Shown here: positions 9,872-27,422 of the stretch, in pieces
Numbering within the stretch: the first letter of the stretch is position 1
How the letters are laid out: every line of letters begins with the position of its first letter
NCBI GenBank assembly: GCA_009996675.1
Contig: JAACZQ010000005.1
Span: 7,948-71,947, forward strand
Length of the DNA stretch: 64,000 bases
Reading direction: 5' to 3'
From: Chitinophagaceae bacterium
Lineage (GTDB): Bacteria > Bacteroidota > Bacteroidia > Chitinophagales > Chitinophagaceae
Notes under the pieces: generated by a model
The model's database searches: none
The model's input: the letters and a program-made list of their open reading frames with translations, nothing else
What the model was told of the DNA's origin: nothing
Translations under genes and position numbers: made by a program

Positions 9872-9945
9872 GGGCCTATAGCTCAGTTGGTTAGAGCACC
9901 TGACTCATAATCAGGGGGTCCCAGGATCATGCCCTGGTGGGCCCA
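9872..9945 (+). tRNA. tRNA with CAT anticodon, most likely tRNA-Ile2 (lysidine)
   Basis: Cloverleaf: acceptor GGGCCTA/TGGGCCC, anticodon arm CCTGA-CTCATAA-TCAGG, T-arm CCAGG-ATCATGC-CCTGG. G1-C72 excludes fMet; C4-G69/C5-G68 match TilS determinants. TATTTTTG -7 promoter at 9844; CCA not encoded. Confidence 0.88.
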
Positions 9946-9946
9946 C
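9904..9946 (+). repeat. attL core (43-bp direct repeat)
   Basis: CTCATAATCAGGGGGTCCCAGGATCATGCCCTGGTGGGCCCAC, identical to 27380-27422. Confidence 0.95.
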
Positions 9947-9957
9947 CCTTTACCAGT

Positions 9958-9990
9958 AAGGCTTTCATCGATTTTGATGAAAGCCTTTTT
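9958..9990 (+). terminator. Element-supplied terminator after the tRNA
   Basis: AAGGCTTTCATC-gatttt-GATGAAAGCCTT followed by a T run. Confidence 0.75.
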
Positions 9991-9997
9991 TGTTGCC

Positions 9998-10021
9998 TGT
10001 GCAAACAATTTGCAAACAAAA
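9998..10021 (+). repeat. Putative integrase arm-type sites (left)
   Basis: TGTGCAAACAATTTGCAAACAAAA (two TGCAAACAA units), identical to 27230-27253. Confidence 0.65.
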
Positions 10022-10160
10022 CCGCTATAAGGGCTTTTCAATACTATATGAGGCTGTGATGGTAACATTGATGTATCTAAGTTAAGATTAGTCAGCGATA
10101 ACCTGAAATCCCAACAAAAAAGCCCATCATTCTGATGGGCTGCGGTAAAACTGTAAATTT

Positions 10161-10487
10161 CTAATTTCGTGGTGCATAGTAAATAATGCAAACACCCAAT
10201 AGTGCTATCAGCGCCCCGATTATGTCATATTTGTCGGGAGTGTACTTGTCAAATTTCATTGCCCACAACAACGACATCACGATAAAGATTCCGCCATAGG
10301 TAGCATATACTCTTGCAAAACTGGACGTTTGCAAAGTCGCTACAACGCCGTAGAGTGCAAGTATAACAGCTCCTGCAATTCCATACCAAAACGGCTTAGC
10401 TTCTTTGAGCCAAAGCCACATTAGGTAACCACCACCGATCTCACAGAGGCCGGCAAGGATAAATATTGGCAGGCTCTTTAAAAACAT
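10161..10487 (-). CDS. ynfA: YnfA (UPF0060) small multidrug-resistance-like membrane protein
   Basis: [13 protein letters not shown] and [11 protein letters not shown] motifs; four TMs; 108 aa. Confidence 0.9.
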
Positions 10488-11104
10488 TACTTGACGGCTT
10501 TTCTTCTAACCGTGCAGCCTATAGCTTTGGTTGAATTAACTAATGGCTTGCTATTACTGCGAAGTGCGTTGATAGCATTTTCAACATAGAGCGTTCGTTC
10601 CGGGTTGTTATTTTGTTGATCATTGTCGATAGATCCGGTGTATTCAATCACGTTACCTGTTGCTGTTTTTGAAACAATAAAAATATGAGGCGTATTCTTT
10701 GCGCCGTATTTGTTAGTGATAACCTGGCCAGCATCATACAGGTAAGGAAAGGAATATTTTTTAGCTTTCGCAAGTTCTTTCATAGCATCAAAGTTGTCGC
10801 CTTGTGATACTTCGGGATCATTTGGGTTGATGGCAATTACCGGATAACCAAGTGGTGCAAATTTTTTATCCAGTTCCATGATTCTTGTCTCGTAGGCTTT
10901 TGCAACCGGGCAGGTGTTGCAGGTAAATACAACGATAAAGCCTTTTGCGTTTGGATAGTTTGCAAAAGACACCTCTTTTCCGTCTACATTTTTGAGCTTA
11001 AAGTCCGGTGCGGAAGTACCAGGAGTAAGCGTATTAATCTGTGCGTTGGCTGAAAATCCTACAAAGGCCAGTAAAATGAAGATGTATTTTTTCATATTGG
11101 TCAT
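10487..11104 (-). CDS. Exported AhpC/TSA thioredoxin-family protein
   Basis: Signal peptide, APDFKL, FTCNTCP Cxx[10 protein letters not shown]-terminal AIGC. Confidence 0.88.
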
Positions 11105-11571
11105 TTAAAATTTTGTAATTCTTTTTCGAGTGCAAGGTAGGAAAACTCCGATTCGACAAATTTTCGCTTCTTTCCTTTAACAAACAGGGTGGCGGGTATG
11201 GTGCCTGACCAATTTTTATCGATCCTGTCTATGTATTTTTGCTGATCCGGTTCGTTCAACACGAATACTTCACTTTTGAGTTGCTTTTTTTTGACAAACG
11301 GTATGACTTTGATTTTTCTGTCAGAGATAAAGTCAACACTTACGAGCAATACCTTGACTTTTTCAGATAGCCCATGTTCTTTATTAAATTTCTCAAAGCT
11401 GGGTATTTCTTTTACGCATGGAGCACACCAAGTTGCCCAAAAGTTGATAATGTATACAGTATCCCTGCCAGACTGTAATCGCTTTTCAAGTTGATCCAAT
11501 GACAGCAGCGATTGGCTTTTGGCAAAAGAAGCAGTAAATGTGAGTATGATTAAAATACTAAGTTGCCTCAT
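11101..11571 (-). CDS. TlpA-like thiol-disulfide oxidoreductase
   Basis: INFWATWCAPCVKEIP motif; cis-Pro loop GTIPATL. Confidence 0.9.
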   Translation of the reverse strand: MRQLSILIILTFTASFAKSQSLLSLDQLEKRLQSGRDTVYIINFWATWCAPCVKEIPSFEKFNKEHGLSEKVKVLLVSVDFISDRKIKVIPFVKKKQLKSEVFVLNEPDQQKYIDRIDKNWSGTIPATLFVKGKKRKFVESEFSYLALEKELQNFK

Positions 11572-11573
11572 AG

Positions 11574-12005
11574 TTACATTTCTAATTCTGTTTTGATAAA
11601 CTCTTTTACGCCCTTCGCACCGGTGATATCCAGCGATATCTTATCATCGTTGGTTACAGCCATCGTAAAATTAAAGAAGCCGCAACAGGTTCGTTCAGAT
11701 TTTATAAAAGCGGCAACAGTTTCCAGGATTTCATCGGTTCCATCAAAAGAATAGCGGTAACCGTTAGGTAGTTCCATCTTGCCTTTTACTTGTTTTTTGA
11801 TAACGGCAATAACTTCTGCTTTTCTTTTCTGTAATTCAGGGGTGGTCAGCTTACAGCTAAATGATTGCGTATTTAGAGTATCGTTTGTTTCGTGGTTGGT
11901 TGAGTCATTCATTGCAATTGTTTTTGAATCGGGTTGCTTTGATGTTGAACCACAGCATCCGGTAAGGCAGTAGCCAACGATAAGTAAATAAAGGAATTTC
12001 ATCAT
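11574..12005 (-). CDS. Cys-containing hypothetical lipoprotein of the type often found beside MerR regulators
   Basis: Lipobox-like LTGC; FSCKLTTPELQKRK...NGYRYSF...ERTCCGFFNF motif. Confidence 0.7.
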   Translation of the reverse strand: MMKFLYLLIVGYCLTGCCGSTSKQPDSKTIAMNDSTNHETNDTLNTQSFSCKLTTPELQKRKAEVIAVIKKQVKGKMELPNGYRYSFDGTDEILETVAAFIKSERTCCGFFNFTMAVTNDDKISLDITGAKGVKEFIKTELEM

Positions 12006-12023
12006 TTCAATGTTTTTGTAAAA

Positions 12024-12053
12024 GTAAACCGTGGAGTATAGTCAATGGTTTAC
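12024..12053. promoter_or_regulatory. Putative MerR-type operator / divergent promoter
   Basis: GTAAACCGT-GGAGTATAGTCA-ATGGTTTAC (8/9 dyad); the core resembles the ZntR operator GGAGTCGACTCC; TACCTTTG -7 box at 12051. Confidence 0.6.
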
Positions 12054-12074
12054 CTTTGAGGCCAAATTTTTCTT

Positions 12075-12476
12075 ATGCTGATCGGGGAATTGTCAAACAG
12101 AAGCGGATTGAGCCGAGATACCATTCGCTTTTATGAAAAAGAAGGTTACATCAAAGTTGGCCGACGGGAACGAAGGGTTAATAATTACAAAGAGTATTCT
12201 GAAGCGACTTTAAAACGTTTGCTCCTTTTCAATAAAATCAAATCGTATGGTTTTACTTTAAATGAATCTGCCGAGATCATTTCACTTCTCGAGTCAAACC
12301 TTGGCACCTGTAATCAGATCAGCAAAGCTGCAGATAGAAAAATCGAAGTTATTGATAAAAAAATACAGGAATTACTGACGCTTAAAACGCTATTACGTAC
12401 AACCATAAATAATTGCAAGAGCGGTTGTTGCTCGCCGAGTTATGATGAAAATTGTCCTTTATTTGTTTTGGATTAG
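12075..12476 (+). CDS. MerR-family metal-responsive regulator
   Basis: MLIGELSNRSGLSRDTIRFYEKEG HTH; a Cys at the start of the dimer helix (GTC) and C-terminal CKSGCC...CP cluster, as in MerR/ZntR. Confidence 0.92.
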   Translation: MLIGELSNRSGLSRDTIRFYEKEGYIKVGRRERRVNNYKEYSEATLKRLLLFNKIKSYGFTLNESAEIISLLESNLGTCNQISKAADRKIEVIDKKIQELLTLKTLLRTTINNCKSGCCSPSYDENCPLFVLD

Positions 12477-12523
12477 TATGCAAACTTACAATCCAGTTAA
12501 ACGAGTCTCGCTAATGTCCTTCT

Positions 12524-13228
12524 TCACAGCCCTAAACGCCTGCCTCGTGATCGCTTAACTGTGTTTGCTTTTGCTTTCTTAATGATGAGCTTGTTCTCCG
12601 GTTTAAATATTTTCTGAGGATTTATCGTTGCTTCTCTTAACCTTTTCACAATTGATGACCAGTCAATACTCTTGTTTAGCAAACCCAGTTGTTGAGTGAG
12701 CCTAACATCGTTATGATAGATCAACGCTTTACCCGCAGTTACCATACTAACACCTGGATACTTCTGCTCGTAACTGGCTAATAATTCTGATAATGATCTG
12801 TGTTCAAGAAGCACATAGATGTCAACGAAATCTTTAAACCGGGAACCGTCCTGAACGATCGCGTTAAATTTCATGGCAGCGATATCCTCCATTGATGCCA
12901 TTCTTATTCCTTCTATTTCTACTGTGTTGCCTATCCACGGATAACGGTGCGCTATGCAGTCGACTTTAATGTCCTCGATAAAACAATTAATAGTGTTATT
13001 GTCGATTTCTAAGTTGTCTACTTTATACTTTTTTGAAAGCTCTTCCCCGGTCTTTTCAGCGTCAAATGAAAACTCTGTAAAAAGATCTATATCAACCGAT
13101 ATTCTATGACCGATCATTAACGCCAATGCAGTTCCACCGACCAATTTAAAATCTTTCAAATATTCATCTGCCATTAACCTATGAATCAAATCCAGAGTTG
13201 ACTCCTCGACTGTTTCCTTATGTAGCAC
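12524..13228 (-). CDS. AbiEii/AbiGii nucleotidyltransferase toxin
   Basis: LVGGTALALMIGHRISVDIDLF and KDFVDIY motifs; GTG start overlapping the antitoxin; basic C-terminal extension. Confidence 0.88.
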   Translation of the reverse strand: MLHKETVEESTLDLIHRLMADEYLKDFKLVGGTALALMIGHRISVDIDLFTEFSFDAEKTGEELSKKYKVDNLEIDNNTINCFIEDIKVDCIAHRYPWIGNTVEIEGIRMASMEDIAAMKFNAIVQDGSRFKDFVDIYVLLEHRSLSELLASYEQKYPGVSMVTAGKALIYHNDVRLTQQLGLLNKSIDWSSIVKRLREATINPQKIFKPENKLIIKKAKANTVKRSRGRRLGL

Positions 13229-13704
13229 TTTAATTCTTCTGGTTTAAGTTTAAAAAAATCGCATACTTTTTTTATAGCCCGGTCGGTTAAATAAGTGGTT
13301 CTGTTTTTAAGTGTGTTGATCACTTTCTTCTCACCGTAAAACCTTATCATTTCTTTCCATTCCTCCGGTGAACCTCGTTCAACAACCCGTTCAATTACCG
13401 TTTCCGAATCCTTCTGCCAATCCATCTCATCGTACTTAAATTCCCAGAATAATCGCTTTGGCAAATCAGGCTTACCTGGTCTTTCCGGTTTAGTAATAAC
13501 CTGCTTGCGTTCTACACGGATATCATCGGTTTCAAAAGGCATTTTTTTCTTCGAGAGATAATTATTTAGTGTGTCATACGAATACATCGGGTTTGCAAGG
13601 CTGAAATTCTTCAGGTTGGAATACACCTCAACAGACTTGTTTGCATTGTTTTTCCAGTGAACTAATACAACCCTTCTAGAATCAAAATTTGCGCCCTGTT
13701 TCAT
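13186..13704 (-). CDS. DUF6922-type putative antitoxin with extra N-terminal domain
   Basis: LFWEFKYDEMDWQKDSETVIERVVERGSPEEW motif; directly upstream of and overlapping AbiEii; likely start MKQGAN at 13704. Confidence 0.75.
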   Translation of the reverse strand: MKQGANFDSRRVVLVHWKNNANKSVEVYSNLKNFSLANPMYSYDTLNNYLSKKKMPFETDDIRVERKQVITKPERPGKPDLPKRLFWEFKYDEMDWQKDSETVIERVVERGSPEEWKEMIRFYGEKKVINTLKNRTTYLTDRAIKKVCDFFKLKPEELKCYIRKQSRSQLWI

Positions 13705-13796
13705 TACATAAATATACGAAAATGTGACCAATATTGTCGCATATTAGTCTGTAATTTGCACCCTTTTTTCAGAAAATATCGGTCAAGTCAGGAAAA

Positions 13797-14342
13797 TCAA
13801 GGGCTACGAACTGCTGAGCCTGACCGGTCTTTCGTACGCCTTATTCCATTTTCTTTTTCACCCGCGAAATGGATAACGGCGGAATCGAATAAGGCCGGAT
13901 TCACGAGGTAAATACTATCCACCTGCCTGCAAAAGCGGGATAGCGACGGACTGGAATTCCTCTTCAAATACCGATACTTTACAGAGTCAGTTTCGTATTC
14001 GGTTGAAATCCGGAATGTATATCCCCATCCCCAAGCCATCGCCATAAAAACGAAGAATAATAAAACGAAAATCCAGGTGCTTTTTCTGCGCAAATAATGT
14101 GTCTTCGATTGCGGTATTTGCGCCGGAGGAATTGATGATTTTAGCTCTGTAAACAGTTGCCTGATTTGAACCCAATCTGCATCCGACAACCGGTTTGTAA
14201 CCGGTTGAGGATTGCCCGGCTTATTCGCCAGCAGCTTCATCAATTCCAGATGACGTTTATTGTCATCATTTGAAGTCGTTTGCTGCAGCAAGCCCATCTC
14301 ATCGAGCTTTTCAACTATAATTTGTAATAACAACTCAGACAT
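13797..14342 (-). CDS. Single-TM mobilization-region hypothetical protein
   Basis: Follows the relaxase; one TM (WIFVLLFFVFMAMAWGWGY) followed by VKYRYLK, as seen downstream of Bacteroidota mob genes. Confidence 0.6.
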   Translation of the reverse strand: MSELLLQIIVEKLDEMGLLQQTTSNDDNKRHLELMKLLANKPGNPQPVTNRLSDADWVQIRQLFTELKSSIPPAQIPQSKTHYLRRKSTWIFVLLFFVFMAMAWGWGYTFRISTEYETDSVKYRYLKRNSSPSLSRFCRQVDSIYLVNPALFDSAVIHFAGEKENGIRRTKDRSGSAVRSP

Positions 14343-14357
14343 GGTTCAATATTTAAT

Positions 14358-15266
14358 TTAAAGACCTAAAGATTTTCTACGTTTCTTTTTGATTAACTCA
14401 TTGGGAACAAAATCCTGTGTGAATTCCGGCTTCATCAGCTCGTACAAGAGCTTAGTTGCTTGACCCAGCTGTTTGTCATGATCCGGTTGTGAAATACCGG
14501 GTTTATGCTGCCGGGTTTTATGCAATGATTGCTGCTGTTTCCGTGCAAACATTTTCTGAAGATTGTTGTACGAAAAGGACCGGTCAATTTCGCTTCCTTT
14601 AAACTTTAATTCATCCTTGCAAAAGCTGATTCCTTGCACCTCGTCTGAGTGTCCTTTATATTTATAAAGTATCGAGATTTGTCGATGGGTAAGTTGTTGC
14701 TTTAGATCCTCCAAATTCTTGCACGCTGGCAGTAAATCATGGATAGCGGCGAAGATTTCATATCGAGCTGCATCTTTACCATGTAAACGTGTCAGATCGG
14801 TTTGACCAAGATGCTTTTCGTTGGCTATTTTCAATCCATACTTTTTGGTCAACTGCTGTGCAATTTTCTTACCGCGCAAACCGATATAATTGTCCCTGAT
14901 TGTTTTTCCATTATTGCTCACCCGGTTGACAACTAAATGCACATGCTGATGTTTCCTGTCATTGTGCTTAACAACAGCAAATTGTGTGTCCGATAGATGA
15001 AGACTTTCGAGATATTCATTGACGGTTATTTTCATAAGGTCAGCAGCTATGTTTTCATCCGGCGGCCAGGATATGATAATATGCAGAACCGGGGACTTTA
15101 AACGCGGATTTTGAGCAGCCTGTGTAGCAAAATCTGCAGCCATTTTTTTGGGGTCATAATCGCGAACGCCAGCACATAGAATTACCTCTGCCTTCTCTTT
15201 ATTTTGAAAAAGGTATTGACATAATCCGGCAAAGGATTTTCCAGGTGGGATAACCTTACTTATCAT
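14358..15266 (-). CDS. Relaxase/mobilization nuclease (MOBP-like)
   Basis: FAGLCQYL catalytic Tyr region, VLHIIISW, and HUH motif KHNDRKHQHVHLVVNRV. Confidence 0.92.
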   Translation of the reverse strand: MISKVIPPGKSFAGLCQYLFQNKEKAEVILCAGVRDYDPKKMAADFATQAAQNPRLKSPVLHIIISWPPDENIAADLMKITVNEYLESLHLSDTQFAVVKHNDRKHQHVHLVVNRVSNNGKTIRDNYIGLRGKKIAQQLTKKYGLKIANEKHLGQTDLTRLHGKDAARYEIFAAIHDLLPACKNLEDLKQQLTHRQISILYKYKGHSDEVQGISFCKDELKFKGSEIDRSFSYNNLQKMFARKQQQSLHKTRQHKPGISQPDHDKQLGQATKLLYELMKPEFTQDFVPNELIKKKRRKSLGL

Positions 15267-15613
15267 CTTCTAAAATGTTCCAAAAGTTTATCGAGATCAA
15301 TTCTGATTTTATCGACTTCAAACACCGCTGAGAGAAGCCGCTCCTTATGAGCCAAACGGGCAATTTGGTTAAGGTTATTTGCCATGCCTACAAGCTTCCG
15401 CATGTTCTCTTTTTCTTCCATAGTAAACCTTGCAATAACAGTTCCGTTTACAGCCATGTTTCTGATATATTCTGTCAGCTTCTGATTGGCCTTGGCGGCT
15501 TTTGCTTTCACAATAAAGTATTCAGCCTTAGTAAATCGGACGCCGGTTGCTGCAGACCGTTTGACAGCTTGTTTAGGCCGTCCTCCTTTACGCACGTTTG
15601 CATCTTTTGCCAT
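15263..15613 (-). CDS. mobC: MobC relaxosome accessory protein
   Basis: KGGRPK...GVRFT ribbon-helix-helix and GMANNLNQIAR motif; overlaps the relaxase start; likely start MAKDAN at 15613. Confidence 0.88.
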   Translation of the reverse strand: MAKDANVRKGGRPKQAVKRSAATGVRFTKAEYFIVKAKAAKANQKLTEYIRNMAVNGTVIARFTMEEKENMRKLVGMANNLNQIARLAHKERLLSAVFEVDKIRIDLDKLLEHFRR

Positions 15614-15644
15614 CACATTTTCTTTTGCGACCAACGGGAGAAAA

Positions 15645-15686
15645 AGCAAGCGGTAGCGTTTTTGTGCTACAAAAACACCGCTTGCT
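15645..15686. other. Putative oriT hairpin
   Basis: AGCAAGCGGT-agc-GTTTTTG-tgcta-CAAAAAC-ACCGCTTGCT directly upstream of mobC. Confidence 0.65.
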
Positions 15687-15697
15687 AAAACAAACTT

Positions 15698-16594
15698 CTA
15701 CATTCCCAACTTCCTTGATTGACTTATTCGATGGGTGTTCTGCTGGCTTACATGCCACTCGTTAAGATCCTTATAATGCTTATATATCCCGCTTTCATCA
15801 ATCACTTTTGCAGGGCTTCTTTTCAGGATTTCTTGAACACATTGCCGACCAGGATTGTCGTTGTCTAAATACAAATGAATCCGATCGTGCTTCTCCTGGA
15901 GTAGCAAACTGCGGGTGAAAAAAGAAAGGGAGTTCAGTACCAGAATGTTTGTTGACTTCGCTTGTTGCAAAGAGTTAAGGCTTCGCCACGTTAGGAAATC
16001 GAAAAACCCTTCAAAAACGGTGATGGTATTTGCGTAGTTATTAAACCAGGTTACATATTTGGGAGCGCTGGCAGCTTTGAAGTGTTTTGAGCGCAGTTCG
16101 TAACCGCCACAATTGTTTTTAAATCCGATTGCCAAAAACCGCTTTCCGGCATTTTCATACAGGATTTGTTTACAGTGATTTTGTGCTACGGATTTTTCAA
16201 TATGCCGGGACGATAAATACTGCAAAAGAAGATTATCCATAATCATTGGATCAATCCGGACAATTTCAATATGGTTGTCATGTTCAGTTGATAGCTGTCC
16301 CGACTCTCGAATAACCGCATTTGGCAGCTCGATCTTTCCTGCTCCAATCTTGTCTAAAGCTTCGGTCAACTCACAACTGAAATATCGCATTGCAAAATCA
16401 ACCAGGTTTCCTCCTTCTCCGGTTCCGTGATCAAACCAGATATTTTTAGCTCGGTTTACTTTGAAGGACGCGGTATTTTCATCACGGGTTGGTGATAGGT
16501 ACCAATAATCGTTTTGGCGGATTTTTTCCGGTCGAAATCCTAATGATGCCAGATAATCCACAAGATCGATTTGATTCGCTTGTTGGCAATTCAT
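15698..16594 (-). CDS. DnaG-like primase (degenerate CHC2 zinc finger + TOPRIM)
   Basis: YLSPTRDENTASFKV...WFDHGTGEGG N-domain; VFEGFFDFL and YLDNDNPG TOPRIM acidic motifs. Confidence 0.88.
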   Translation of the reverse strand: MNCQQANQIDLVDYLASLGFRPEKIRQNDYWYLSPTRDENTASFKVNRAKNIWFDHGTGEGGNLVDFAMRYFSCELTEALDKIGAGKIELPNAVIRESGQLSTEHDNHIEIVRIDPMIMDNLLLQYLSSRHIEKSVAQNHCKQILYENAGKRFLAIGFKNNCGGYELRSKHFKAASAPKYVTWFNNYANTITVFEGFFDFLTWRSLNSLQQAKSTNILVLNSLSFFTRSLLLQEKHDRIHLYLDNDNPGRQCVQEILKRSPAKVIDESGIYKHYKDLNEWHVSQQNTHRISQSRKLGM

Positions 16595-16920
16595 ACGGCA
16601 TCATTTAAAGAATTAACAGGTAATTGCGTTTGCCGGATCACAAGCTCAATGTCGGCGCGGGAAAAATACCGGCGCGACCGGATTTTAAAACTGCGTAGTT
16701 TGTTTTGCCTGATCCAAGCATAAAGAGTAGGCTTGGATACACGGAAAATTTCGCAAACTTCACTTGCTTTTAAAAGTGTCTTTTCCGGCAAGTCATGTAA
16801 GGAATGGGATTCGGTTTGTAAGGTGGCGAGTTTCGCATCTACAACTTCGGATACTACGACCTTAATTTGTTTCCAGAACTCCGAAGGAGCAACGGGGAAT
16901 AGCATTGGGGTTTCCTGCAT
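16591..16920 (-). CDS. HTH_17 excisionase-like protein
   Basis: LLKASEVCEIFRVSKPTLYAWIRQNKL winged HTH; 4-nt overlap with the primase. Confidence 0.82.
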   Translation of the reverse strand: MQETPMLFPVAPSEFWKQIKVVVSEVVDAKLATLQTESHSLHDLPEKTLLKASEVCEIFRVSKPTLYAWIRQNKLRSFKIRSRRYFSRADIELVIRQTQLPVNSLNDAV

Positions 16921-17342
16921 ACATCACGATTTATCATTTTCACAAAAGGGTTAGCCTGGTATATGTAAGTTAAAGTAGGAAGCAGGAGTGATTTCCAAGT
17001 GGATTCCCAAGTATGGGGTATTCGTGATAAACTATACGGATAGAAAATGAGATTTGTGCCAGGTACGGCAAGAGGAGTAAACCAGTTTAGTTTTGTCGTT
17101 TCCATTCTACACTTCATTTCCAATCAATAAATCAAATCGACCTGTAAAGATAAGTTGCTTAAAGAAACAAAAAATGACATGATCAAATTTTGATCATGTG
17201 GTTATTGATTCTATTAACAATTACAGTGAAAATTATTGATAAGTCAACTGGATTAACGGCAATTAAAGTAAAGAGACGGTAAAATAGGGAAAGTATGAAC
17301 CAGTCGAAAAAAGAAAAGGAAACTTAAGATTTAACAAATAAA

Positions 17343-17370
17343 ACCTGCCAGTCAAAGTTAACTGGCAGGT
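17343..17370. terminator. Terminator of the czc/P-type ATPase operon
   Basis: ACCTGCCAGT-caaagtta-ACTGGCAGGT, 15 nt past the ATPase stop. Confidence 0.7.
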
Positions 17371-17385
17371 ATAAATTATTTCTCG

Positions 17386-19878
17386 CTATATCTTCTTATT
17401 CATTTGATACACCAACAAACGTAATGCATTAAAGACAACTACTAACGTCGATCCTTCGTGCGCAATTACAGCTGGGCCAATACTCGCAATACCAAGAATT
17501 GTAAGTGGTATCAATATGGCCACCATTCCAAGACTGATAAACAGATTTTGCCTGATAATCGACTTCGCCTTTCGACTTAGGCCGATTGCGAATGGTAGTA
17601 ACAGGAGCTTGTCGCCCATGAGCGCGATATCAGCAGTTTCTAATGCCACATCGCTACCCGCAGCACCCATAGCAATACCTACCGTACTTTTCGCCATAGC
17701 CGGTGCGTCATTTACGCCATCGCCAACCATCGCAACTTTGCCTTCTTGTCCGGCCAGCTGTTCTATCGCTTCCACTTTTTGTTCGGGCAGTAATCCGCCT
17801 CTTGCTTCCGTTAATCCGATTTCTTTTGCAATTGCATCGCCTACTTTCTGATTGTCGCCGGTAAGCATGATCATTTTTTTGATGCCCGCTTGCTGCAATT
17901 CCTGCAATGCCTGTTTAGCTTCCGGCCTCGGCGTATCCATTATTGCAATGATCCCTACGTAGTCCTTGTTACGCCTGATCACCATAGTTGTGTTTCCAGC
18001 CGCCTCCAACTCACGGACTTTAGCGATCAATTCTTCGGTTGGTTTAGCATCATCGAGGCTTTCAAATAAGGCAAGGTTTCCGGCGAATACTTGATCGTTC
18101 CCTAAAGTCGCCTTAACTCCCTTCCCAAGCACAGCTTGCAGATCCTTTGCTTGGGGAACATTTTGGTCCTTTAATTTTTCCTTACCATCCCGAACTATCG
18201 CTTTCGCGATCGGGTGATCGCTGAGTGATTCTATACCCACAACCATTTTTAAGAGGTCTTCTTCCGAAAGATTATTAAGCGGAACAACCTGCGTAAGCTT
18301 AGGCTTTCCTTCTGTAAGTGTACCGGTCTTATCGAACGCGATCGCTGTGAGTGTACCAAGATCTTCCAGGGGTCTGCCTCCTTTAATAAGAACGCCGCTT
18401 CTTGCCGCACGTGCAACCCCACTTAAAACAGCGCTCGGTGTAGAAATTGCCAGTGCGCAAGGACTTGCTGCTACCAGGACCGCCATAGCCCGGTAAAAAC
18501 TGGCGCTGAATGGCTCATCAATCACCAAATAGGCGAAGCAAAGCAATACAACAAGTATAAGTACAGAAGGAACAAAATATTTCTCCAATTTGTCCGTAAA
18601 CTGCTGCGTTGGTGATTTCTGTGTCTGTGCTTCATTGACAAGTTTTACAAGGCGTGACAAAGTGGAATCTTTTGCTTCCTTGGTTACGCTTATTTCCAAT
18701 AAATCGTTCCCATTAATTGTTCCGGCAAATACGCGATGCTTCGCATCAACTTTATCTGCATTTTCAGATTTGAAATTTCCTGCATCTGGAACTGCTTCTT
18801 TATCTACCGGAATACTTTCGCCGGTAATAGGAGCCTGGTTGACACTGCTTTTACCTGTAACAATAACTCCATCAGCAGAAACTTTGGTATTCGGTTTTAT
18901 TACAATCACATCACCCAATTTCAATTCCTCAATTTTCACTTCTGTTGTTTGTCCATCCTTTTTAAGCAGTGCTGTTTTAGGTGCCAGTTCTGTTAAAGCC
19001 GCAATAGACTTGCGCGCTTTTTCCATTGCATAGTGTTCAAGGGAATGTCCCAGGCTGAACAGGAATAGTAATAACGCACCTTCCATCCAGTTATCTAAAA
19101 CAGCTGCGCCTATTGCCGCAACGAGCATCAAAAAATCGATCTCGAAGCCTCCCTTCATGATTGTTTGAATTGCTTCTTTGGCAGTAAAAAAGCCACCAAA
19201 GAAATAAGCGATCATGTACAGGATTTCAACTGTTATTTCTGAAACATTTGTCAGTTTAGATAATGCAAATCCTAATCCTAAAAACAGACCGCACAGTATG
19301 CTGAAAATTAGCTCAGTGTTTTTACCGAATATTCCACCATGCGAATGCCCTTCTTCTCCTTCTTCCTCACCATGATCATGCTCATGCTTTCCTTCCGGAT
19401 GTGAATGATCATCATGTTTTGGTTTTGCCTGTTTAGTAGGCAGACTTACGCCGGTTTTTTCAATCAACTCTTTTACTTTCTTTTCCGATATCTCTTTAGA
19501 GTCGAATTCTATCAGTACCATTCCGCTTGCTGAAGCAGAAACAGATAGAATTCCTTTGTTATGCTTTAATCCTGCCTCTATCAGTCTGGTTTGCCGTTGA
19601 TGACGAATGCCGTTTACTTCTACCAATAAGTGTTTGTAACGATCGGTAATTTTAGCGCCTGCTTCACGCGCAATCTGCTGTACACGATCCAGGGTGATTA
19701 CGTTTGGATCATAGTGAAAGCACAGTTGCGCTTTTGTGGTGTCTGTTTCAGGAACGATATGTACTTTATCTATTCCCTGTCGTCCTTCCAGTTCTGAGAT
19801 AATGCGGTTCACACAGGCATCTTTTTCATCGGGAACATTGGGAAGTAGTATATCGAGGTCTATTTTAAGTTTTTCCAT
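17386..19878 (-). CDS. P1B-4-type heavy-metal (Zn/Cd/Co) translocating P-type ATPase
   Basis: TGES, SPC, DKTGTLT, SDHP, GDGVNDAP and HEGST motifs; N-terminal ferredoxin-like repeats and a His-rich linker. Confidence 0.93.
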   Translation of the reverse strand: MEKLKIDLDILLPNVPDEKDACVNRIISELEGRQGIDKVHIVPETDTTKAQLCFHYDPNVITLDRVQQIAREAGAKITDRYKHLLVEVNGIRHQRQTRLIEAGLKHNKGILSVSASASGMVLIEFDSKEISEKKVKELIEKTGVSLPTKQAKPKHDDHSHPEGKHEHDHGEEEGEEGHSHGGIFGKNTELIFSILCGLFLGLGFALSKLTNVSEITVEILYMIAYFFGGFFTAKEAIQTIMKGGFEIDFLMLVAAIGAAVLDNWMEGALLLFLFSLGHSLEHYAMEKARKSIAALTELAPKTALLKKDGQTTEVKIEELKLGDVIVIKPNTKVSADGVIVTGKSSVNQAPITGESIPVDKEAVPDAGNFKSENADKVDAKHRVFAGTINGNDLLEISVTKEAKDSTLSRLVKLVNEAQTQKSPTQQFTDKLEKYFVPSVLILVVLLCFAYLVIDEPFSASFYRAMAVLVAASPCALAISTPSAVLSGVARAARSGVLIKGGRPLEDLGTLTAIAFDKTGTLTEGKPKLTQVVPLNNLSEEDLLKMVVGIESLSDHPIAKAIVRDGKEKLKDQNVPQAKDLQAVLGKGVKATLGNDQVFAGNLALFESLDDAKPTEELIAKVRELEAAGNTTMVIRRNKDYVGIIAIMDTPRPEAKQALQELQQAGIKKMIMLTGDNQKVGDAIAKEIGLTEARGGLLPEQKVEAIEQLAGQEGKVAMVGDGVNDAPAMAKSTVGIAMGAAGSDVALETADIALMGDKLLLLPFAIGLSRKAKSIIRQNLFISLGMVAILIPLTILGIASIGPAVIAHEGSTLVVVFNALRLLVYQMNKKI

Positions 19879-19901
19879 GATATATTTTTTAATGGGTTAA
19901 T

Positions 19902-21083
19902 TTATTCTTCTTCTACACTATTAGTCATTTTGGCGAGGATAAAAAACGCGCCTTTAACGACAATCTTGCTCGTAGCTGGCACCGCTTTAAGCGGCGTGAT
20001 CTCGCTATAACCAATATCAGTTGTGCCTTTTGCCACGGGAATCCTTTCAAATTGAACCGTTGCCGCAGAGTCATTGCCTGATCTGCTGCTTTCAATAAAA
20101 ATGTAGTCCCTGCCTTGAAAGCTCACAATCGCATCCACCGGGACAGCATCCATTGTTGCTTTGCCTAAACTTACGCTGGCTGTGATATTCATTCCGTCAA
20201 TCAGCCCGGTTTTGTTGCCTTGTACCATTGCATGAACAGGTATGGTTTTGCTACCTGCTTCAAAGGCGGAACCAATGGAGAAAATACGTGCGTCATATTC
20301 CCGTCCCGGATCGTTGGTGATCGTAAAATGGATCAGCTGGTTTTCCTTCAGTCTTTTCCAATCCTTTTCATATACGAAAAGATCGAGGTGCAACTGACTG
20401 TTATCGACAATCTCCGCTATTGCGTTATTTGCATCCACAAAACTTCCGATTTTAGCAATCACGTTACTGACAACACCACCAATCGGCGCTTTGATCTCTA
20501 AAGTAGTGATCATATTGCCGTTGGTTAAACCCGCAGCATCTACATTCATCAGTTGCAGTTGTTTTTGCAAAGAAGCATGTCTGGTACGCAAGCCTTTTAA
20601 ATCTGCTTCCGCCTGCTGCAGGTTTTTAAGCGCTCCCGCATTGCCGGTATTCAGTTCACGTTGCCGTGCAAATTCAAGTTCTGCCATTTTGATTTTACTA
20701 TCGAGTGTCAGGTATTCTTCCTGCATCTGGATATACTGCGGATTGGCAATGGTCGCAATCGTTTGCCCCTTTCGTACATAGCTACCTGTTTGAACCAGTA
20801 AAGTTTTGACAACACCGGAATACAGTGAATTGACAATAGCCTTATTCTGATTGGGAACATTTAAGACCCCATTGGACCTAAGCGATGCTGTCAGTTGCTT
20901 TTGCTCGATCGTGCCAAACGATACACCGATGGTTTTTAATTGCTTTTCTGTAAGCGTTGTAAATGCCGATGAATCTGCAGATTTATTTTCTTTCTTTTCC
21001 GCTTCTTTTTCAGTCTTTCCCTTGCAGGAAACAAGACTGATAAGGAAGCCCGAAATAATAATTCCTATGGTTATTTTCTTCAT
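19902..21083 (-). CDS. czcB: CzcB-like RND periplasmic adaptor (lipoprotein)
   Basis: Lipobox LVSC, barrel-sandwich hybrid and coiled hairpin; 2 nt downstream of czcA. Confidence 0.88.
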   Translation of the reverse strand: MKKITIGIIISGFLISLVSCKGKTEKEAEKKENKSADSSAFTTLTEKQLKTIGVSFGTIEQKQLTASLRSNGVLNVPNQNKAIVNSLYSGVVKTLLVQTGSYVRKGQTIATIANPQYIQMQEEYLTLDSKIKMAELEFARQRELNTGNAGALKNLQQAEADLKGLRTRHASLQKQLQLMNVDAAGLTNGNMITTLEIKAPIGGVVSNVIAKIGSFVDANNAIAEIVDNSQLHLDLFVYEKDWKRLKENQLIHFTITNDPGREYDARIFSIGSAFEAGSKTIPVHAMVQGNKTGLIDGMNITASVSLGKATMDAVPVDAIVSFQGRDYIFIESSRSGNDSAATVQFERIPVAKGTTDIGYSEITPLKAVPATSKIVVKGAFFILAKMTNSVEEE

Positions 21084-21085
21084 GA

Positions 21086-24000
21086 TTATTGATTTAGATA
21101 GTAGAGGTATTGGATAGCTGAATGGTTATACTGATCGAGATTTTCAAGATAACTTTTGCGGATATCTATCGCTTGTGCAAGGTACTGGCTCAGCGCCGCA
21201 AAACTTATTTCTCCGCTTCGGTAGCTTAACGTGGCTGCTTTAATGATCTCATCTGCCTGTGAAAGACCGGTCGATTGATAGTAATTCAGCATCGTGTTAT
21301 TCTTTGCGATGTCTGCGATTGCTTTTTGTTTCGCGCCTGCGAATTGTTGCGTCTGGTAGGCAAGCGTTTTTTCCTGCACCTGGAATTCGGCCTGTGCAGA
21401 GCGCACTTTACTACGCGATGCTCCCGTGCCGAATAATGGGAAAGCTGCCGTAACAGAAAAACCGGTATAAGGATCACTTATGCCATACAACCTTTGCGAA
21501 AAGAATCTTCCTGAAAACTCCGGTTTGTTTTGATTCTGCTGCACCGAAATATTTGCATCAGCAATATTTACTTTCTGTTGCTGAAGTAATAATTCGGGGT
21601 GCAGGGAAGAATCACTTAATGAAAGTGCTATTCTCGTGAGTGAAGTTTGCAACGGGAGCGAAGGGAAAGGCCGACCGAGTAACATCATCAATTGCTGTTG
21701 CTCCATCACGATCTCGTTTGCCTGTTGGTCAATCAGTGCGCGTGTTTCTTTCATCTTAGCCTCCGCAGCGATCCTGTCAATACCTGCCGTTTCTCCGGTG
21801 CGCTGCTTTACAGCAGACGCATCACTGATTGCCGTGTAGATACTATCGAGCCGTTGAAACAGAGTTCGTCTTTCTACTAGGTACCATAGCTTATAATACG
21901 AATCCCTTACATCTCTTCGGATGATGGCGCTCAGTGTATTTGTATTTAACTCGTAATACTTCGCTTGCTCTGTAAAGTATTTTTTTCTTGCTGCATACAA
22001 ACCCGGCCATGCAATGGATTGTGATACGCCCATTTTCAGGATGCCTTTGTTATCACTTGGACGCAGATCCTCGTTTTCTGCAAATACACCTGTTTTGGGG
22101 ATATCCGCAGCGGTCTTGATGTCAAGTCTTGCGCGGGTGATTTCCGCCTGGTTGACCGCGAACTGCAAATTGTTTTTCATCGCAGTATCGATAGCGGCCT
22201 GCAGGCTGATACGTTCCTGCGATTTTCCGGCCAGCGGCGAAAGGAAAGCCAACGCAACAATCATTGCTATTGGTAAATTCTTCATGGTTTTTCTTTTTAA
22301 CGTGAATAGCAGATACAAACACGGCAGCACGACCAGCGTTAAAAATGTGGCCGACACCAATCCACCAATGACAACGGTCGCAAGCGGCTTTTGCACTTCC
22401 GCACCAGCGCCGGTGGAAAGTGCCATAGGTAAAAATCCGAGCGATGCCACTGTCGCCGTCATAAGTACCGGGCGTAATCTAATGCGCGTCCCCTCCAGAA
22501 CACGGGCAAGTGGATCGTGCATGCCTTCTTTTTGTAACTGGTTGAATGTGCTGATGAGTACAATACCATTCAATACTGCAACGCCGAACAGCGCGATAAA
22601 GCCAACGCCAGCTGAAATACTAAATGGCATTCCACGGAGCATCAATGCGAATACGCCGCCGATAGCACTCATCGGTATTGCGGTGAAGATGAGTGTCGCT
22701 TCCTTGAATGAACGGAAGGTTAGGTACAGCATAAAATAAATGAGCAGTAGCGCCAATGGTACAACGATCATCAGGCGCGATGACGCCTGTTGTAAATTTT
22801 CAAATGTTCCACCGTAGGTATAATAGTATCCTGCAGGCAGGACAGATGCTTTTGAAAGTTTTGCTTCAATATCTTTCACCACACTTTGTACATCGCGGCC
22901 TTTCACGTTAAAACCAATAACTACCCGTCTTTTACCGGCTTCGCGGCTGATCTGCGCCGGACCTACTTTGAAGGCAACGGTTGCAATTTGAGATAGCGGT
23001 ATTTGGTTTCCTTTATTCGTTGCAATAAACAGGCTGCTTACATCATCAATTGATGTTCGGCTTGTGCTATCAAGTCTCACCACTAAATCAAATTTCCGCT
23101 CGTTCTCAAACACAACACCTGCGGCTTCTCCGGCAAAGGCTGTGCTGATCGTCCGGTTTACATCTTCCACGCTGATGCTATAATTAGCCAGACGCGCACG
23201 GTCGTACTGAACGGTGATCTGTGGCAAGCCTGTTGTCTTTTCTACCTGCGGTTCAGAAACACCATTTACATCACTGATAATGGATGCCGTTTTTTGCGCA
23301 AGGCTTGCCAGCGTATCGATATTCTCGCCGAAAATTTTGATCGCTACATCCTGGCGAACACCTGTCATCAACTCGTTAAAACGCATCTGTATCGGTTGAT
23401 TGTACTCAAAGAAAACACCCGGAATAACCGATAATTTTTCCAGCATCCGGTTAGCGAGTTCTTTGTAGTCTTTGGTTGTTGTCCAGTCCTTTTTGTCTTT
23501 GAGCGTAATGACCAGATCACTTGCTTCAGGCGGCATGGGGTCAGTTGGAATTTCTGCACTGCCTGTCCTGCCGACAACACTGATCACTTCAGGAAACTCT
23601 TTGATGATACGCGAAGCCTGCATAGATGTTTCAATACTTTGCGCTAAAGAGGTTCCTTGCGGAAGGATACAATGAAACGCATAATCACCTTCTTCGAGTT
23701 GCGGGATAAATTCTCCACCCATACGACTAAATAAGAAAACACAGAGAGCGACCAGCGCAACTGCTATGCCAACCACCCATACACGGACACGTATTGCGCC
23801 ACGTAACAGCGGTGCGTATAAGCGTTGCAAGAAATCCATCAGTTTGTCCGACCAGGTTCTTTTATGAAGCGATTGTTTCGGTAAAAAGAGCGCACTCATC
23901 ATCGGGATATAGGTCAGTGAAAGTATAAGCGCTCCCAAAATGGCGAAGGCCACTGTTTTTGCCATTGGTGTAAACATCTTTCCCTCGATGCCCTGCAACG

Positions 24001-25393: not shown

Positions 25394-25472
25394 TTATCCA
25401 AGTTTAATGATAATGGTACACGGGTTTACTTGAGCCTGTTATAGACCCAACACATAGTCAGTAAAGAATGGA

Positions 25473-25799
25473 TTAAGCCCGTGGAGGCTGCCAGATAGTA
25501 CCCTGATAGGAAGAAAGATGAAAATTGTCCTCTGCAGCAACAGGTTTTGCGGGAGGTGTTTCTATTGTTTGTGTTTGAAAGGCGACAGTCTTTGCGGAGA
25601 AATTAAAACCGGCGCAATGATGGCAGTTGAAGAAAGGTGAACAGCTACCGCAGCCATCTTTATCGCCCCCTTGATGGGTATTGGTTTGACAGGCAATTTC
25701 AGATTGTTCGCGGTCTTCCGGGCAATTGTCGAACGCACAACACGGCAACACCGTAAGGAGCATTAAATAAAAAGACAATATCGCTGTCGCAACGCGCAT
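25473..25799 (-). CDS. DUF6660-like Cys/His-rich small protein
   Basis: VLPCCAFDNC...CGSCSPFFNCHHC...IWQPPRA pattern typical upstream of Bacteroidota czcA; TAATTTTG -7 box a few nt before the ATG. Confidence 0.75.
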   Translation of the reverse strand: MRVATAILSFYLMLLTVLPCCAFDNCPEDREQSEIACQTNTHQGGDKDGCGSCSPFFNCHHCAGFNFSAKTVAFQTQTIETPPAKPVAAEDNFHLSSYQGTIWQPPRA

Positions 25800-25881
25800 G
25801 GTGCAAAATTACGTCATTCTTCCAGGTTTATCTATCCGTTTTTTGCTCGGTGGTTGCAAACTGTATATTACTATGATACCC

Positions 25882-27123
25882 CTACTTAGCTGCCGAATCA
25901 GCGGAATTTTCTTTCATAAACCCTAAAAGCGATTCGCTATGCTTTTTCTTCATATCATCTTCGAAACTGTCGAGATAGTGGGCAGTAGTTAAAATTGAGC
26001 TATGTCCAAGCGACTCGGAAATAAACTCAATACTTGCACCAGACCGTTTTAATACTGTAGAAAATGAATGTCTGGCAGTATAAGTCGTCAGCGGCTTTTC
26101 TAATTTCAGTTCGTCTGATATACACTTCAATCCTTTATTAATTCGCCAGATCAAATCTTTAACTCTTTCACGCTCCTGTGGTGAAGTCAGGCCAGCTTCC
26201 AGCACCGGGAATATATAGTTCTCTTTTGCTTTATTCCAGTTTCCCCATTTCTTCATGGTCAGACGCATTTCATCGTTAATCGAAATACTGATGACTTTCG
26301 GATTACTGCGCATAGCCCGACTTGTTTTAGCTCTTTCGAAATGTATAAAATCACCAGAGATATGTTTGAATTTTAAACGGGCGATATCTGCCATGTTGAT
26401 ACCATTTGCGAAATAGCTGAAAAACCAATACGCCTTTGCTTTTTCTTCTTGCGGAGTTTTCGGTTCGTAATAGAATATCTTACCGATGTCAGCAAGCGAC
26501 AATGCCTTTTTGACATTCCTACCTGTTGGTACGATGTAGCGCCGTTTTGAAAATGGATAATATTCTTTTGATATAAGATTTCGTTCTATGGCCTCATTGA
26601 AGATCGCCCGCAGTGAGCGTGTATAAATTCCAACAGTTGTTATTGAGTTACCTTGCTCCAGCATCCATTCTTCAAACTTGTACAGAAAGGCGGCATCAAC
26701 GTCTTCAAATCGTAGCCGTGGCTTAAACTTCAGCAGTTTCCGCAAGCTTAACTTGTAGTTTTCAGCAGTGCTAACACGATCCTCACGGTTAAACCGGTCA
26801 ATGACTTCGTTGAAGACCGTTTCTACAAAAGAACCGTCGTAGGATTTTTGAAGGAAGCGACGCTCAAAGACCGGAAAATTGAACGGTTTGATCTCTTTCA
26901 GTAGATGCACTGCTTTCGCCTCAGCCTCCGAAAGCGTGTCTTTTTTCGCCAGCAGTTCCGTTGGCACACGTTTCATAGATATCCGTTTAAACTCTTCTTC
27001 TGTCAGGCTAACGCCGGTTTCGTAGTATTTTGATCGGCGATCGCATGTAATTCGGACTTTAACCGGGTAAGTGCCAGTCACTTTTTTGCGTCTGGTATCG
27101 TGGAATAATTTAACTGTAATCAT
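25882..27123 (-). CDS. Tyrosine recombinase/integrase (arm-binding + SAM-like + catalytic)
   Basis: N-terminal YPVKVRIT arm domain; ADIAR, TYTARHSF and LGHSSILTTAHY catalytic motifs; adjacent to attR. Confidence 0.95.
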   Translation of the reverse strand: MITVKLFHDTRRKKVTGTYPVKVRITCDRRSKYYETGVSLTEEEFKRISMKRVPTELLAKKDTLSEAEAKAVHLLKEIKPFNFPVFERRFLQKSYDGSFVETVFNEVIDRFNREDRVSTAENYKLSLRKLLKFKPRLRFEDVDAAFLYKFEEWMLEQGNSITTVGIYTRSLRAIFNEAIERNLISKEYYPFSKRRYIVPTGRNVKKALSLADIGKIFYYEPKTPQEEKAKAYWFFSYFANGINMADIARLKFKHISGDFIHFERAKTSRAMRSNPKVISISINDEMRLTMKKWGNWNKAKENYIFPVLEAGLTSPQERERVKDLIWRINKGLKCISDELKLEKPLTTYTARHSFSTVLKRSGASIEFISESLGHSSILTTAHYLDSFEDDMKKKHSESLLGFMKENSADSAAK

Positions 27124-27170
27124 GGGACCCCCTGATTTTTGGGCATTGATTTATGAATAGAGATGGCTAA

Positions 27171-27253
27171 AATTTGCAAACAAAAACGGCCTAATCTGGT
27201 GGTCTCCCGAGGGGAAACATGGCGAAAAGTGTGCAAACAATTTGCAAACAAAA
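27171..27253 (+). repeat. Putative integrase arm-type sites (right)
   Basis: AATTTGCAAACAAAAAC at 27171 and TGTGCAAACAATTTGCAAACAAAA at 27230-27253. Confidence 0.65.
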
Positions 27254-27379
27254 GTACATTAAGCCGGTTTTCGGCCGGTAAAGATGTAATGCTAAAAAAT
27301 CGCTAAAACCCTTTGCCAGTAAGTGTTTCAGTGAATTTAGGTAACGTTGGGTAAAGTTGAGAAAAGGGCAAAAATGGCC

Positions 27380-27422
27380 CTCATAATCAGGGGGTCCCAG
27401 GATCATGCCCTGGTGGGCCCAC
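27380..27422 (+). repeat. attR core (duplicated tRNA 3' half)
   Basis: Exact 43-bp copy of 9904-9946, starting in the anticodon loop. Confidence 0.95.

Follow-up and report, generated by a model that had tools for sequence, protein, structure and literature searches.

A short basic C-terminal motif shared by an AbiEii-type toxin, a relaxase and a primase of a Bacteroidota mobilizable element, a candidate tag for export by conjugation

Why would a toxin-type nucleotidyltransferase end in nearly the same residues as two DNA-transfer proteins encoded beside it? The question arises in a 64,000-nt stretch of contig JAACZQ010000005.1 from a Chitinophagaceae bacterium (GCA_009996675.1), hereafter the window, in whose positions coordinates are given unless a locus is named. 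The host assembly spans 3.25 Mb, is 95% complete and contains 2910 open reading frames (ORFs). An initial annotation had reported that an AbiEii toxin, a relaxase and a primase of the window share a basic tail closing on LG(L/M), and had proposed that the toxin is delivered to recipients by conjugation together with the relaxase. The region sits inside a 17.5-kb integrative mobilizable element (IME; 9904-27422). The three genes and the toxin tail, the latter delimited by predicted local distance difference test (pLDDT) values, homolog lengths and tail score, are as follows.

12524..13228, minus strand: AbiEii/AbiGii-family nucleotidyltransferase (toxin-type), 234 aa (Pfam PF08843, E 7.7e-17)
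12527..12604, minus strand: C-terminal extension of the toxin, residues 209-234, variable linker plus terminal motif ...KRSRGRRLGL
14358..15266, minus strand: MOBP-type relaxase, 302 aa (Pfam PF03432, E 6e-35); tail ...KKKRRKSLGL, codons 14361-14390
15698..16594, minus strand: CHC2 zinc-ribbon and Toprim primase, 298 aa (Pfam PF01807 and PF13155); tail ...SQSRKLGM, codons 15701-15721

The toxin ends in KRSRGRRLGL, the relaxase in KKKRRKSLGL and the primase in SQSRKLGM, all three following the pattern basic-x-L-G-(L/M). The C termini given in the initial annotation were therefore correct, and the three minus-strand genes belong to the Pfam families listed. Its further remark that no other likely protein of the window ends in this way also stood: across the whole genome, LG[LM] closes 5 of the 2910 ORFs, three of which are the toxin, the relaxase and the primase, while the remaining two have non-basic tails. 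The hypergeometric probability of finding at least three of the five in one seven-gene set is 8.5e-8, or ~2.5e-4 when corrected for all windows. The terminal codons differ between the genes (toxin, cgt tta ggg ctg tga; relaxase, tct tta ggt ctt taa; primase, aag ttg gga atg tag), so the likeness lies at the protein level. A repeat in the DNA, or a regulatory sequence common to the genes, was rejected as the source of the ending, as both the codons and the downstream sequences differ.

Across homologs, LG(L/M) is the local form of a broader motif anchored at the C terminus. We surveyed the endings of each family's top 120 homologs. In each of the three unrelated families, most homologs bear a motif consisting of a Lys/Arg run, Gly at position -4, a hydrophobic residue at -3 (in toxins also Arg or Pro), Arg, His, Gly or Lys at -2, and Leu, Arg, Ile, Met or Pro as the last residue. 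Nearly all 120 relaxase homologs carry a poly-Lys/Arg run followed by the motif (for example, SKRMHL, SRGLHL, RRGLGLH and RKSLGL). Primase homologs end in QSRGLR[RP], QSRRIGR, SRGLHL or KRLGL, and toxin homologs in QSRGRRMR(P), RKRGRGI, RGPRL, GRGYRM or KGRGFRR. The signature named in the initial annotation is thus real locally, but it is one dialect of the broader motif, and most homologs lack the exact ending.

We scored tails with a seven-residue, right-aligned log-odds matrix trained on relaxase and primase tails only. The tail of the window toxin reached 9.6 bits, above all ~2900 background ORFs of the genome (maximum 8.6). The threshold for 1% false positives was exceeded by 57 of the 120 toxin homologs, compared with 4.7% of background ORFs with basic tails. 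In the genome-wide ranking, the relaxase and the toxin hold the top two places and the primase the seventh. Besides the three element proteins, 5 of the ~2900 host ORFs score at least 6 bits, and none of these exceeds the relaxase or the toxin. The genome's 16 highest-scoring tails do not include that of the chromosomal DnaG (contig C56). For 141 tailed toxins, the mean score was 2.84 bits, against -4.14 bits when the last seven residues were shuffled (1000 shuffles, maximum -2.28). Shuffled tails score far lower, which shows that residue order matters beyond composition. The information content of the right-aligned tails peaks in the last seven positions, and Gly stands exactly at -4 in 92 of the 141 tailed toxins.

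The protein that carries this tail has an intact enzyme core. It matches PF08843 with 62.5 bits (curated cut-off 22.5) as well as 13 AbiEii models of PADLOC. The catalytic signature GG...DID plus KDxxD is intact, and G31, G32, D46, D48, K132, D133 and D136 are invariant in 23 homologs, tailed or not. A sequence search of the PDB with the toxin gave a weak AbiGII match only; the best PDB fold matches of its AlphaFold (AF2) model are JHP933 of H. pylori (4o8s / 4ok0; E 1e-6) and the MenT1 toxin. JHP933 is a putative Helicobacter pylori nucleotidyltransferase, presumably encoded in a plasticity zone that carries a type IV secretion system (T4SS). That the tail lies past the nucleotidyltransferase core, as initially noted, is seen in several ways. 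The Pfam match ends at residue 199 with no domain found beyond it, the core ends at a conserved NPxKIF (F208) after which untailed homologs stop, and pLDDT, 88.5 overall and ~95 for residues 1-210, falls below 50 for residues 213-234. The extension after F208 is bimodal, with 0-10 aa or 14-38 aa. The longer form, 26 aa in the window toxin, consists of a linker variable in length and composition followed by the terminal motif. As modelled, the toxin tail is a disordered add-on past the catalytic core. At a Niastella locus, a 71-aa ORF just 3' of the toxin gene (L007:10808-11023) repeats the last 16 residues of the toxin including its tail, which suggests a partial tandem duplication of the toxin 3' end.

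Upstream of the toxin lies its conserved partner, a putative antitoxin.

13186..13731, minus strand: DUF6922 protein, conserved upstream partner of the toxin (putative antitoxin), no tail (Pfam PF21956, E 3.6e-22)

Of 80 toxin loci, 79 encode a DUF6922 partner, whether or not the toxin has a tail, and none of 70 partners is tail-positive. Because untailed copies keep both the catalytic residues and the partner, the tail is needed neither for catalysis nor for partner pairing. In the window, the two genes overlap by ~43 nt (13186-13228) and the toxin starts with GTG; an overlap of 42-45 nt recurs in most of the 79 loci, suggesting translational coupling. This arrangement resembles AbiE (AbiEi/AbiEii, a type IV toxin–antitoxin (TA) system of abortive infection) and MenAT in its nucleotidyltransferase fold, its catalytic motifs and its two-gene operon with an overlapping upstream partner. 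It differs from them in the extra C-terminal motif of the tailed copies and in the partner, which is DUF6922 and not a winged-helix AbiEi/COG5340 antitoxin: no AbiEi-type protein was found upstream, and the DUF6922 protein had no AbiEi, PADLOC or NCBIfam match. The ESM Atlas gave nothing informative for this partner.

We next compared toxin loci with and without the tail, calling the tail state by the length of the extension after F208. A simple regular expression for tails was dropped, as it misclassified GMGR-type tails of Pedobacter. On a maximum-likelihood tree of the core alone, the tail state requires at least 7-8 changes. Of the 51 tailed toxins, 26 have a gene for a relaxase, primase, MobC or MobB within 10 kb, compared with 1 of the 28 untailed ones (Fisher P 1.2e-5); adding integrases within 3 kb gives 34/51 versus 2/28 (P 2.3e-7). 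The initial annotation had suggested asking whether tailed AbiEii homologs are enriched on mobilizable elements or whether the tail is equally common in non-mobile homologs. Tailed homologs are indeed enriched near mobilization genes, and untailed copies sit among housekeeping genes. The two untailed toxins in a mobile context (L060 and L048) look, from their sequences, like recent tail losses. The Pedobacter copy L060:10001-10750 is nearly identical to the tailed toxin of L061, but its 41-aa extension lacks the motif, probably owing to a frameshift.

Because distant mobility genes could escape our own hidden Markov models for relaxase, primase and integrase, we scanned neighbours with Pfam. 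Among 63 neighbours at 13 untailed loci (the first half of the list), the scan returned housekeeping families (Pterin_bind, GH3, RecJ, MetRS and MnmE), two integrases and one IS110, but no relaxase. Neighbours of tailed loci that lacked a mobility marker included defence-island-type families (nSTAND3, AAA_15/21 and GmrSD) as well as MobC_2, IstB and an integrase fragment. A coupling protein is encoded in 35 of 49 genomes with a tailed toxin, compared with 10 of 28 with an untailed one (P 0.004), a comparison confounded by kinship and genome quality.

The tail is also specific among the proteins of mobile loci. Two further genes of the window that lie between toxin and primase have no tail.

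13797..14342, minus strand: conserved 181-aa hypothetical protein, 3' of the relaxase, no tail (no Pfam match)
15263..15649, minus strand: NikA/MobC-type relaxosome accessory protein, no tail (Pfam PF21983 and PF05713)

In 79 loci centred on relaxase homologs, 102 ORFs are tail-positive, whereas 7.9 were expected. They comprise 59 of 81 relaxases and 35 of 45 primases. None of 61 MobC/NikA proteins or 22 integrases is tail-positive, and neither are the homologs of the 181-aa hypothetical protein, found in 60 of these loci, with one exception (1/60). All other ORFs of these loci reach 4/1111, which is the background rate. As expected of a T4SS signal, the tail is common to the relaxase and other transfer proteins and absent from MobC and integrase. 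Two of the four tail-positive other ORFs are 498-aa Fic/DOC proteins (Pfam E 1e-13) encoded directly 3' of IME relaxases in Sediminibacterium (L083:11640-13136 and L085:11609-13099), with the tails RRSLRM and RRSLRR, respectively. By sequence assignment, Fic/DOC is a second toxin-type enzyme family with the tail.

MobB (DUF5712) relaxases, a family outside the training set of the matrix, are also tailed in the 80 toxin loci. Examples from Pedobacter (L028:19785-20435, L042:14302-15297, L045:15340-16311 and L066:10559-11530) show the endings QQSRGLRR, QSQGVRR and QNQGLGR. These Pedobacter MobB endings match the ...GM[GS]R endings of the AbiEii toxins at the same loci. Coupling proteins are present in 25 of 61 sampled genomes of the family. 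In the surroundings of 20 coupling-protein genes, taken from genomes of this family, 16 ORFs are tail-positive against 4.5 expected: adjoining relaxases, a DUF4099/DUF3945/Toprim_Crpt protein, a HEPN protein and a family of ~150 aa. The HEPN protein is a single instance (L220:12383-13246, 287 aa), encoded ~8-10 kb from the coupling-protein gene, with the tail RKIKRLHI (9.6 bits). Members of the small family (~145-160 aa; L215:16231-16713, L211:18656-19087 and L218:7429-7920) end in PK(S/G)(K/R)GFRH or RRLRM; they have no Pfam match, and the ESM Atlas gave weak leads only, to conjugative-element domains.

The motif varies by lineage. In Pedobacter and Mucilaginibacter, toxin and MobB relaxase alike close on ...G[LMV][GSR]R, and in Chitinophagaceae both close on ...L/I. 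These dialects, read from a small sample of related members, point to a common, co-evolving reader. Strict covariation within an element was rejected: the last three residues are not always the same in toxin and relaxase, and the dialect holds at the level of the lineage only.

The element itself shows the marks of an IME: it has attachment (att) repeats at a tRNA gene, encodes an integrase and a relaxase plus accessory protein, and lacks T4SS genes. Its remaining features are these.

9904..9946, plus strand: left att, 43-bp direct repeat, the 3' part of a tRNA gene (CAT anticodon, 9872-9947); repeat pair 100% identical
27380..27422, plus strand: right att, 43-bp direct repeat, identical to the left copy
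16591..16920, minus strand: HTH_17 (excisionase/AlpA-like) protein (Pfam PF12728)
25882..27123, minus strand: tyrosine integrase of the element (Pfam Phage_int_SAM_5, Phage_integrase and Arm-DNA-bind_5)

No T4SS-related families were found among the element ORFs scanned with Pfam. The relaxase matches to NCBIfam TraI/MobA(P) and Bacteroid_MobB were both under the cut-offs. The cargo comprises a MerR-linked thiol-redox operon, a P-type ATPase and an RND efflux system. The 24-nt sequence TGTGCAAACAATTTGCAAACAAAA occurs identically just inside both element ends, with a third copy (75%) near the integrase end (9998-10021, 27162-27185 and 27230-27253). These copies may be arm sites for a recombinase or excisionase.

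Positively charged C-terminal T4SS signals are known from VirE2, VirF and VirD2 of Agrobacterium and from MobA of RSF1010, and the plasmid primases Sog and TraC reach recipients. The tails described here resemble the signals of VirB/VirD4-type and conjugative T4SSs in forming an unstructured, Arg/Lys-rich extreme C terminus on a relaxase and on unrelated proteins, relaxases and primases being the classical transferred proteins. The fixed register, the low pLDDT (<50) and the richness in Lys and Arg fit a signal that is C-terminal, unstructured and net positive. Unlike those signals, the motif belongs to the phylum and T4SS class of Bacteroidota, is both shorter and better defined, with Gly at -4 and a set final residue, and is known here from sequence. 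The Agrobacterium-type consensus R-x7-R-x-R-x-R is not found in KRSRGRRLGL, KKKRRKSLGL or SQSRKLGM, in which Gly at -4 and the last two residues are the conserved features.

A closer precedent concerns toxins. VbhT of Bartonella schoenbuchensis (VbhT/VbhA FicTA), FicT of Methylobacterium p1METDI and PezT of Chelativorans are TA toxins encoded beside a relaxase, with a C-terminal extension (BID) that is absent from non-mobile homologs and matches the secretion signal of the relaxase; such recruitment arose repeatedly, and VbhT is transferred by a conjugative T4SS (Harms et al. 2017; PMC5675462). The pKM101 system has been reported to transfer CcdB and SrnB (PMC11288057). Like the VbhT-type toxins, the window toxin is encoded near a relaxase and bears an extra stretch at its C terminus that homologs outside mobile elements lack. 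In the VbhT-type proteins, however, BID is a folded domain of ~100 aa with a charged tail, whereas the extension here is a disordered tail of 14-38 aa without a BID domain. The toxin there is Fic or PezT; here it is AbiEii, with Fic- and HEPN-tailed proteins in relatives. Those elements encode their own T4SS, whereas the window element is mobilizable and must borrow one. By analogy, the Fic- and HEPN-tailed proteins, the latter a single instance, would fit the theme of TA toxins as conjugation effectors.

These comparisons establish the motif itself, that it is conserved and specific, and that it is linked to mobile contexts. A fixed register, a disordered variable linker, unrelated carriers, a distribution centred on relaxases and primases, and absence from MobC/NikA, integrases and chromosomal homologs together argue for a recognition tag read from the free C terminus. 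We give roughly even chances to the reading in which the tails are one short C-terminal linear motif, by which the toxin is tagged for the coupling protein of a helper element and delivered to recipients together with the DNA-transfer proteins. Bacteroidota mobile elements would place the motif on proteins meant to leave the donor with the DNA. Lacking a channel for transfer, the element would most likely rely on a conjugative element in the same cell: its relaxase and primase would dock, via the tail, on that element's type IV coupling protein, which we infer to be the most economical reader. The AbiEii-type nucleotidyltransferase would have gained this tail at the end of a flexible linker; the DUF6922 protein lacks it. 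The toxin could then be exported to the recipient along with the element DNA or independently of it. AbiEii/MenT enzymes nucleotidylate tRNA acceptor ends and thereby halt translation; a delivered toxin might likewise arrest the recipient unless the incoming element expressed the DUF6922 partner, the presumed neutralizing protein. That the purpose would be to poison recipients that fail to establish the antitoxin is speculation.

Co-translocation of the toxin, as the initial annotation had put it, thus gains comparative evidence for a shared signal marking DNA-transfer proteins and the VbhT-type precedent, while about half of the tailed toxins have no nearby mobilization gene. Several findings weigh against such export. 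Neighbourhoods within 10 kb contain no mobilization gene for 25 of the 51 tailed toxins, and many of these resemble defence islands. Only 57 of the 120 toxin homologs pass the matrix threshold, and toxin tails prefer Arg or Pro at -3 where relaxases and primases prefer Leu, Met or His, so that the motifs are similar and not identical. Kinship, genome size and completeness are not accounted for in the raw Fisher tests. Independent contrasts over seven pairs gave ~3 in the same direction, ~0.2 (0.1-0.3) in the opposite direction and ~3.8 without difference; the direction is the expected one, with too few pairs (p ~0.25). The tailed toxin lies at least 0.6 Mb from the nearest coupling protein in the three genomes that allowed both genes to be located on a single sequence. 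No TraG-D_C coupling protein was found anywhere in the 95%-complete host assembly, element included, and the literature searched held no experimental T4SS signal in Bacteroidota.

The tail could instead be a polybasic anchor for nucleic acids or membranes, either AT-hook-like or a K-Ras-like patch with a hydrophobic end, that holds the enzymes at DNA or RNA, at the origin of transfer (oriT) or at the inner membrane and has no role in export. We consider this rather unlikely, although the tails are strongly basic and the relaxase, the primase and the nucleotidyltransferase all act on nucleic acids, AbiEii/MenT enzymes on tRNA. Some toxin homologs do have RGRP-, GPR- or RRP-like cores (KRGRRPRL, KGRRPKL and RGPRL), and tailed toxins occur far from any coupling protein, as such an anchor would allow. 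None of the three window tails, however, has the Arg/Lys-flanked GRP core of an AT-hook, a motif that may lie anywhere in a protein. The tail motif keeps to the extreme C terminus, with Gly at -4 and a set final residue, features that a nucleic-acid hook does not need; the drop in score of shuffled tails of the same composition points the same way. The DNA-binding MobC/NikA (0/61) and integrases (0/22) are untailed, and the chromosomal DnaG is absent from the top 16 tails. That untailed toxins retain catalytic residues and partner indicates that the enzyme can dispense with the tail.

Less probable still is recognition of the tail by an AAA+ unfoldase or protease of the cytoplasm, much as ClpX recognizes the basic end of MuA transposase (RRKKAI), which would serve relaxosome remodelling or control protein lifetime, including that of the toxin. 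C-terminal anchoring, a basic-then-hydrophobic end and a disordered linker are features of C-degrons, and the tail has all three on proteins whose dosage an element might need to control. Yet a degron in general use by the host should occur on more host ORFs than the five of ~2900 that score at least 6 bits. Of the two proteins of a TA pair, the antitoxin is normally the unstable one, and none of the 70 partners is tailed; nor does a degradation tag predict the link to mobile contexts and to coupling-protein presence. Unfolding before export would in any case be compatible with a T4SS signal and no rival to it. Coincidence, or convergence of low-complexity ends without a shared function, we regard as very improbable. 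Basic C termini are not rare (120 of 2910 ORFs have at least four Lys/Arg and no Asp/Glu in the last 12 residues), and the exact LG(L/M) ending is missing from most homologs. Chance does not, however, account for the cluster in the window (P 8.5e-8), for conservation of the tail over hundreds of homologs in three families, for a matrix that transfers between families or for the high specificity of the tail within loci.

Positively charged C-terminal T4SS signals and the recruitment of TA toxins as conjugation-delivered effectors are known kinds of system. What the export-tag reading adds is a defined short motif in Bacteroidota, of which no description was found in the literature searched, an AbiEii-family carrier with a DUF6922 partner, and a mobilizable element that borrows its channel. 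More tentatively, and with less than even confidence, we propose that the conjugation machines of Bacteroidota read a C-terminal tag of 5-7 residues, that TA-type toxins (AbiEii, Fic and HEPN) have acquired it repeatedly, and that elements without a channel inject the toxin through a helper. If so, toxin injection would enforce establishment of the element or harm cells that reject it, and the set of proteins transferred in Bacteroidota conjugation would become predictable from sequence. Bacteroidota include the main gene exchangers of the gut and many bacteria of soil and water. No substrate signal is known to have been defined for their conjugation, and a scorable tag would predict which proteins travel with the DNA, potentially relaxases, primases, anti-defence proteins and toxins. 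It would also provide an easy means of bringing reporters or cargo proteins into recipients in laboratory matings. A tagged toxin-type enzyme would extend the Bartonella finding to a new phylum, a new toxin family and elements that borrow their channel.

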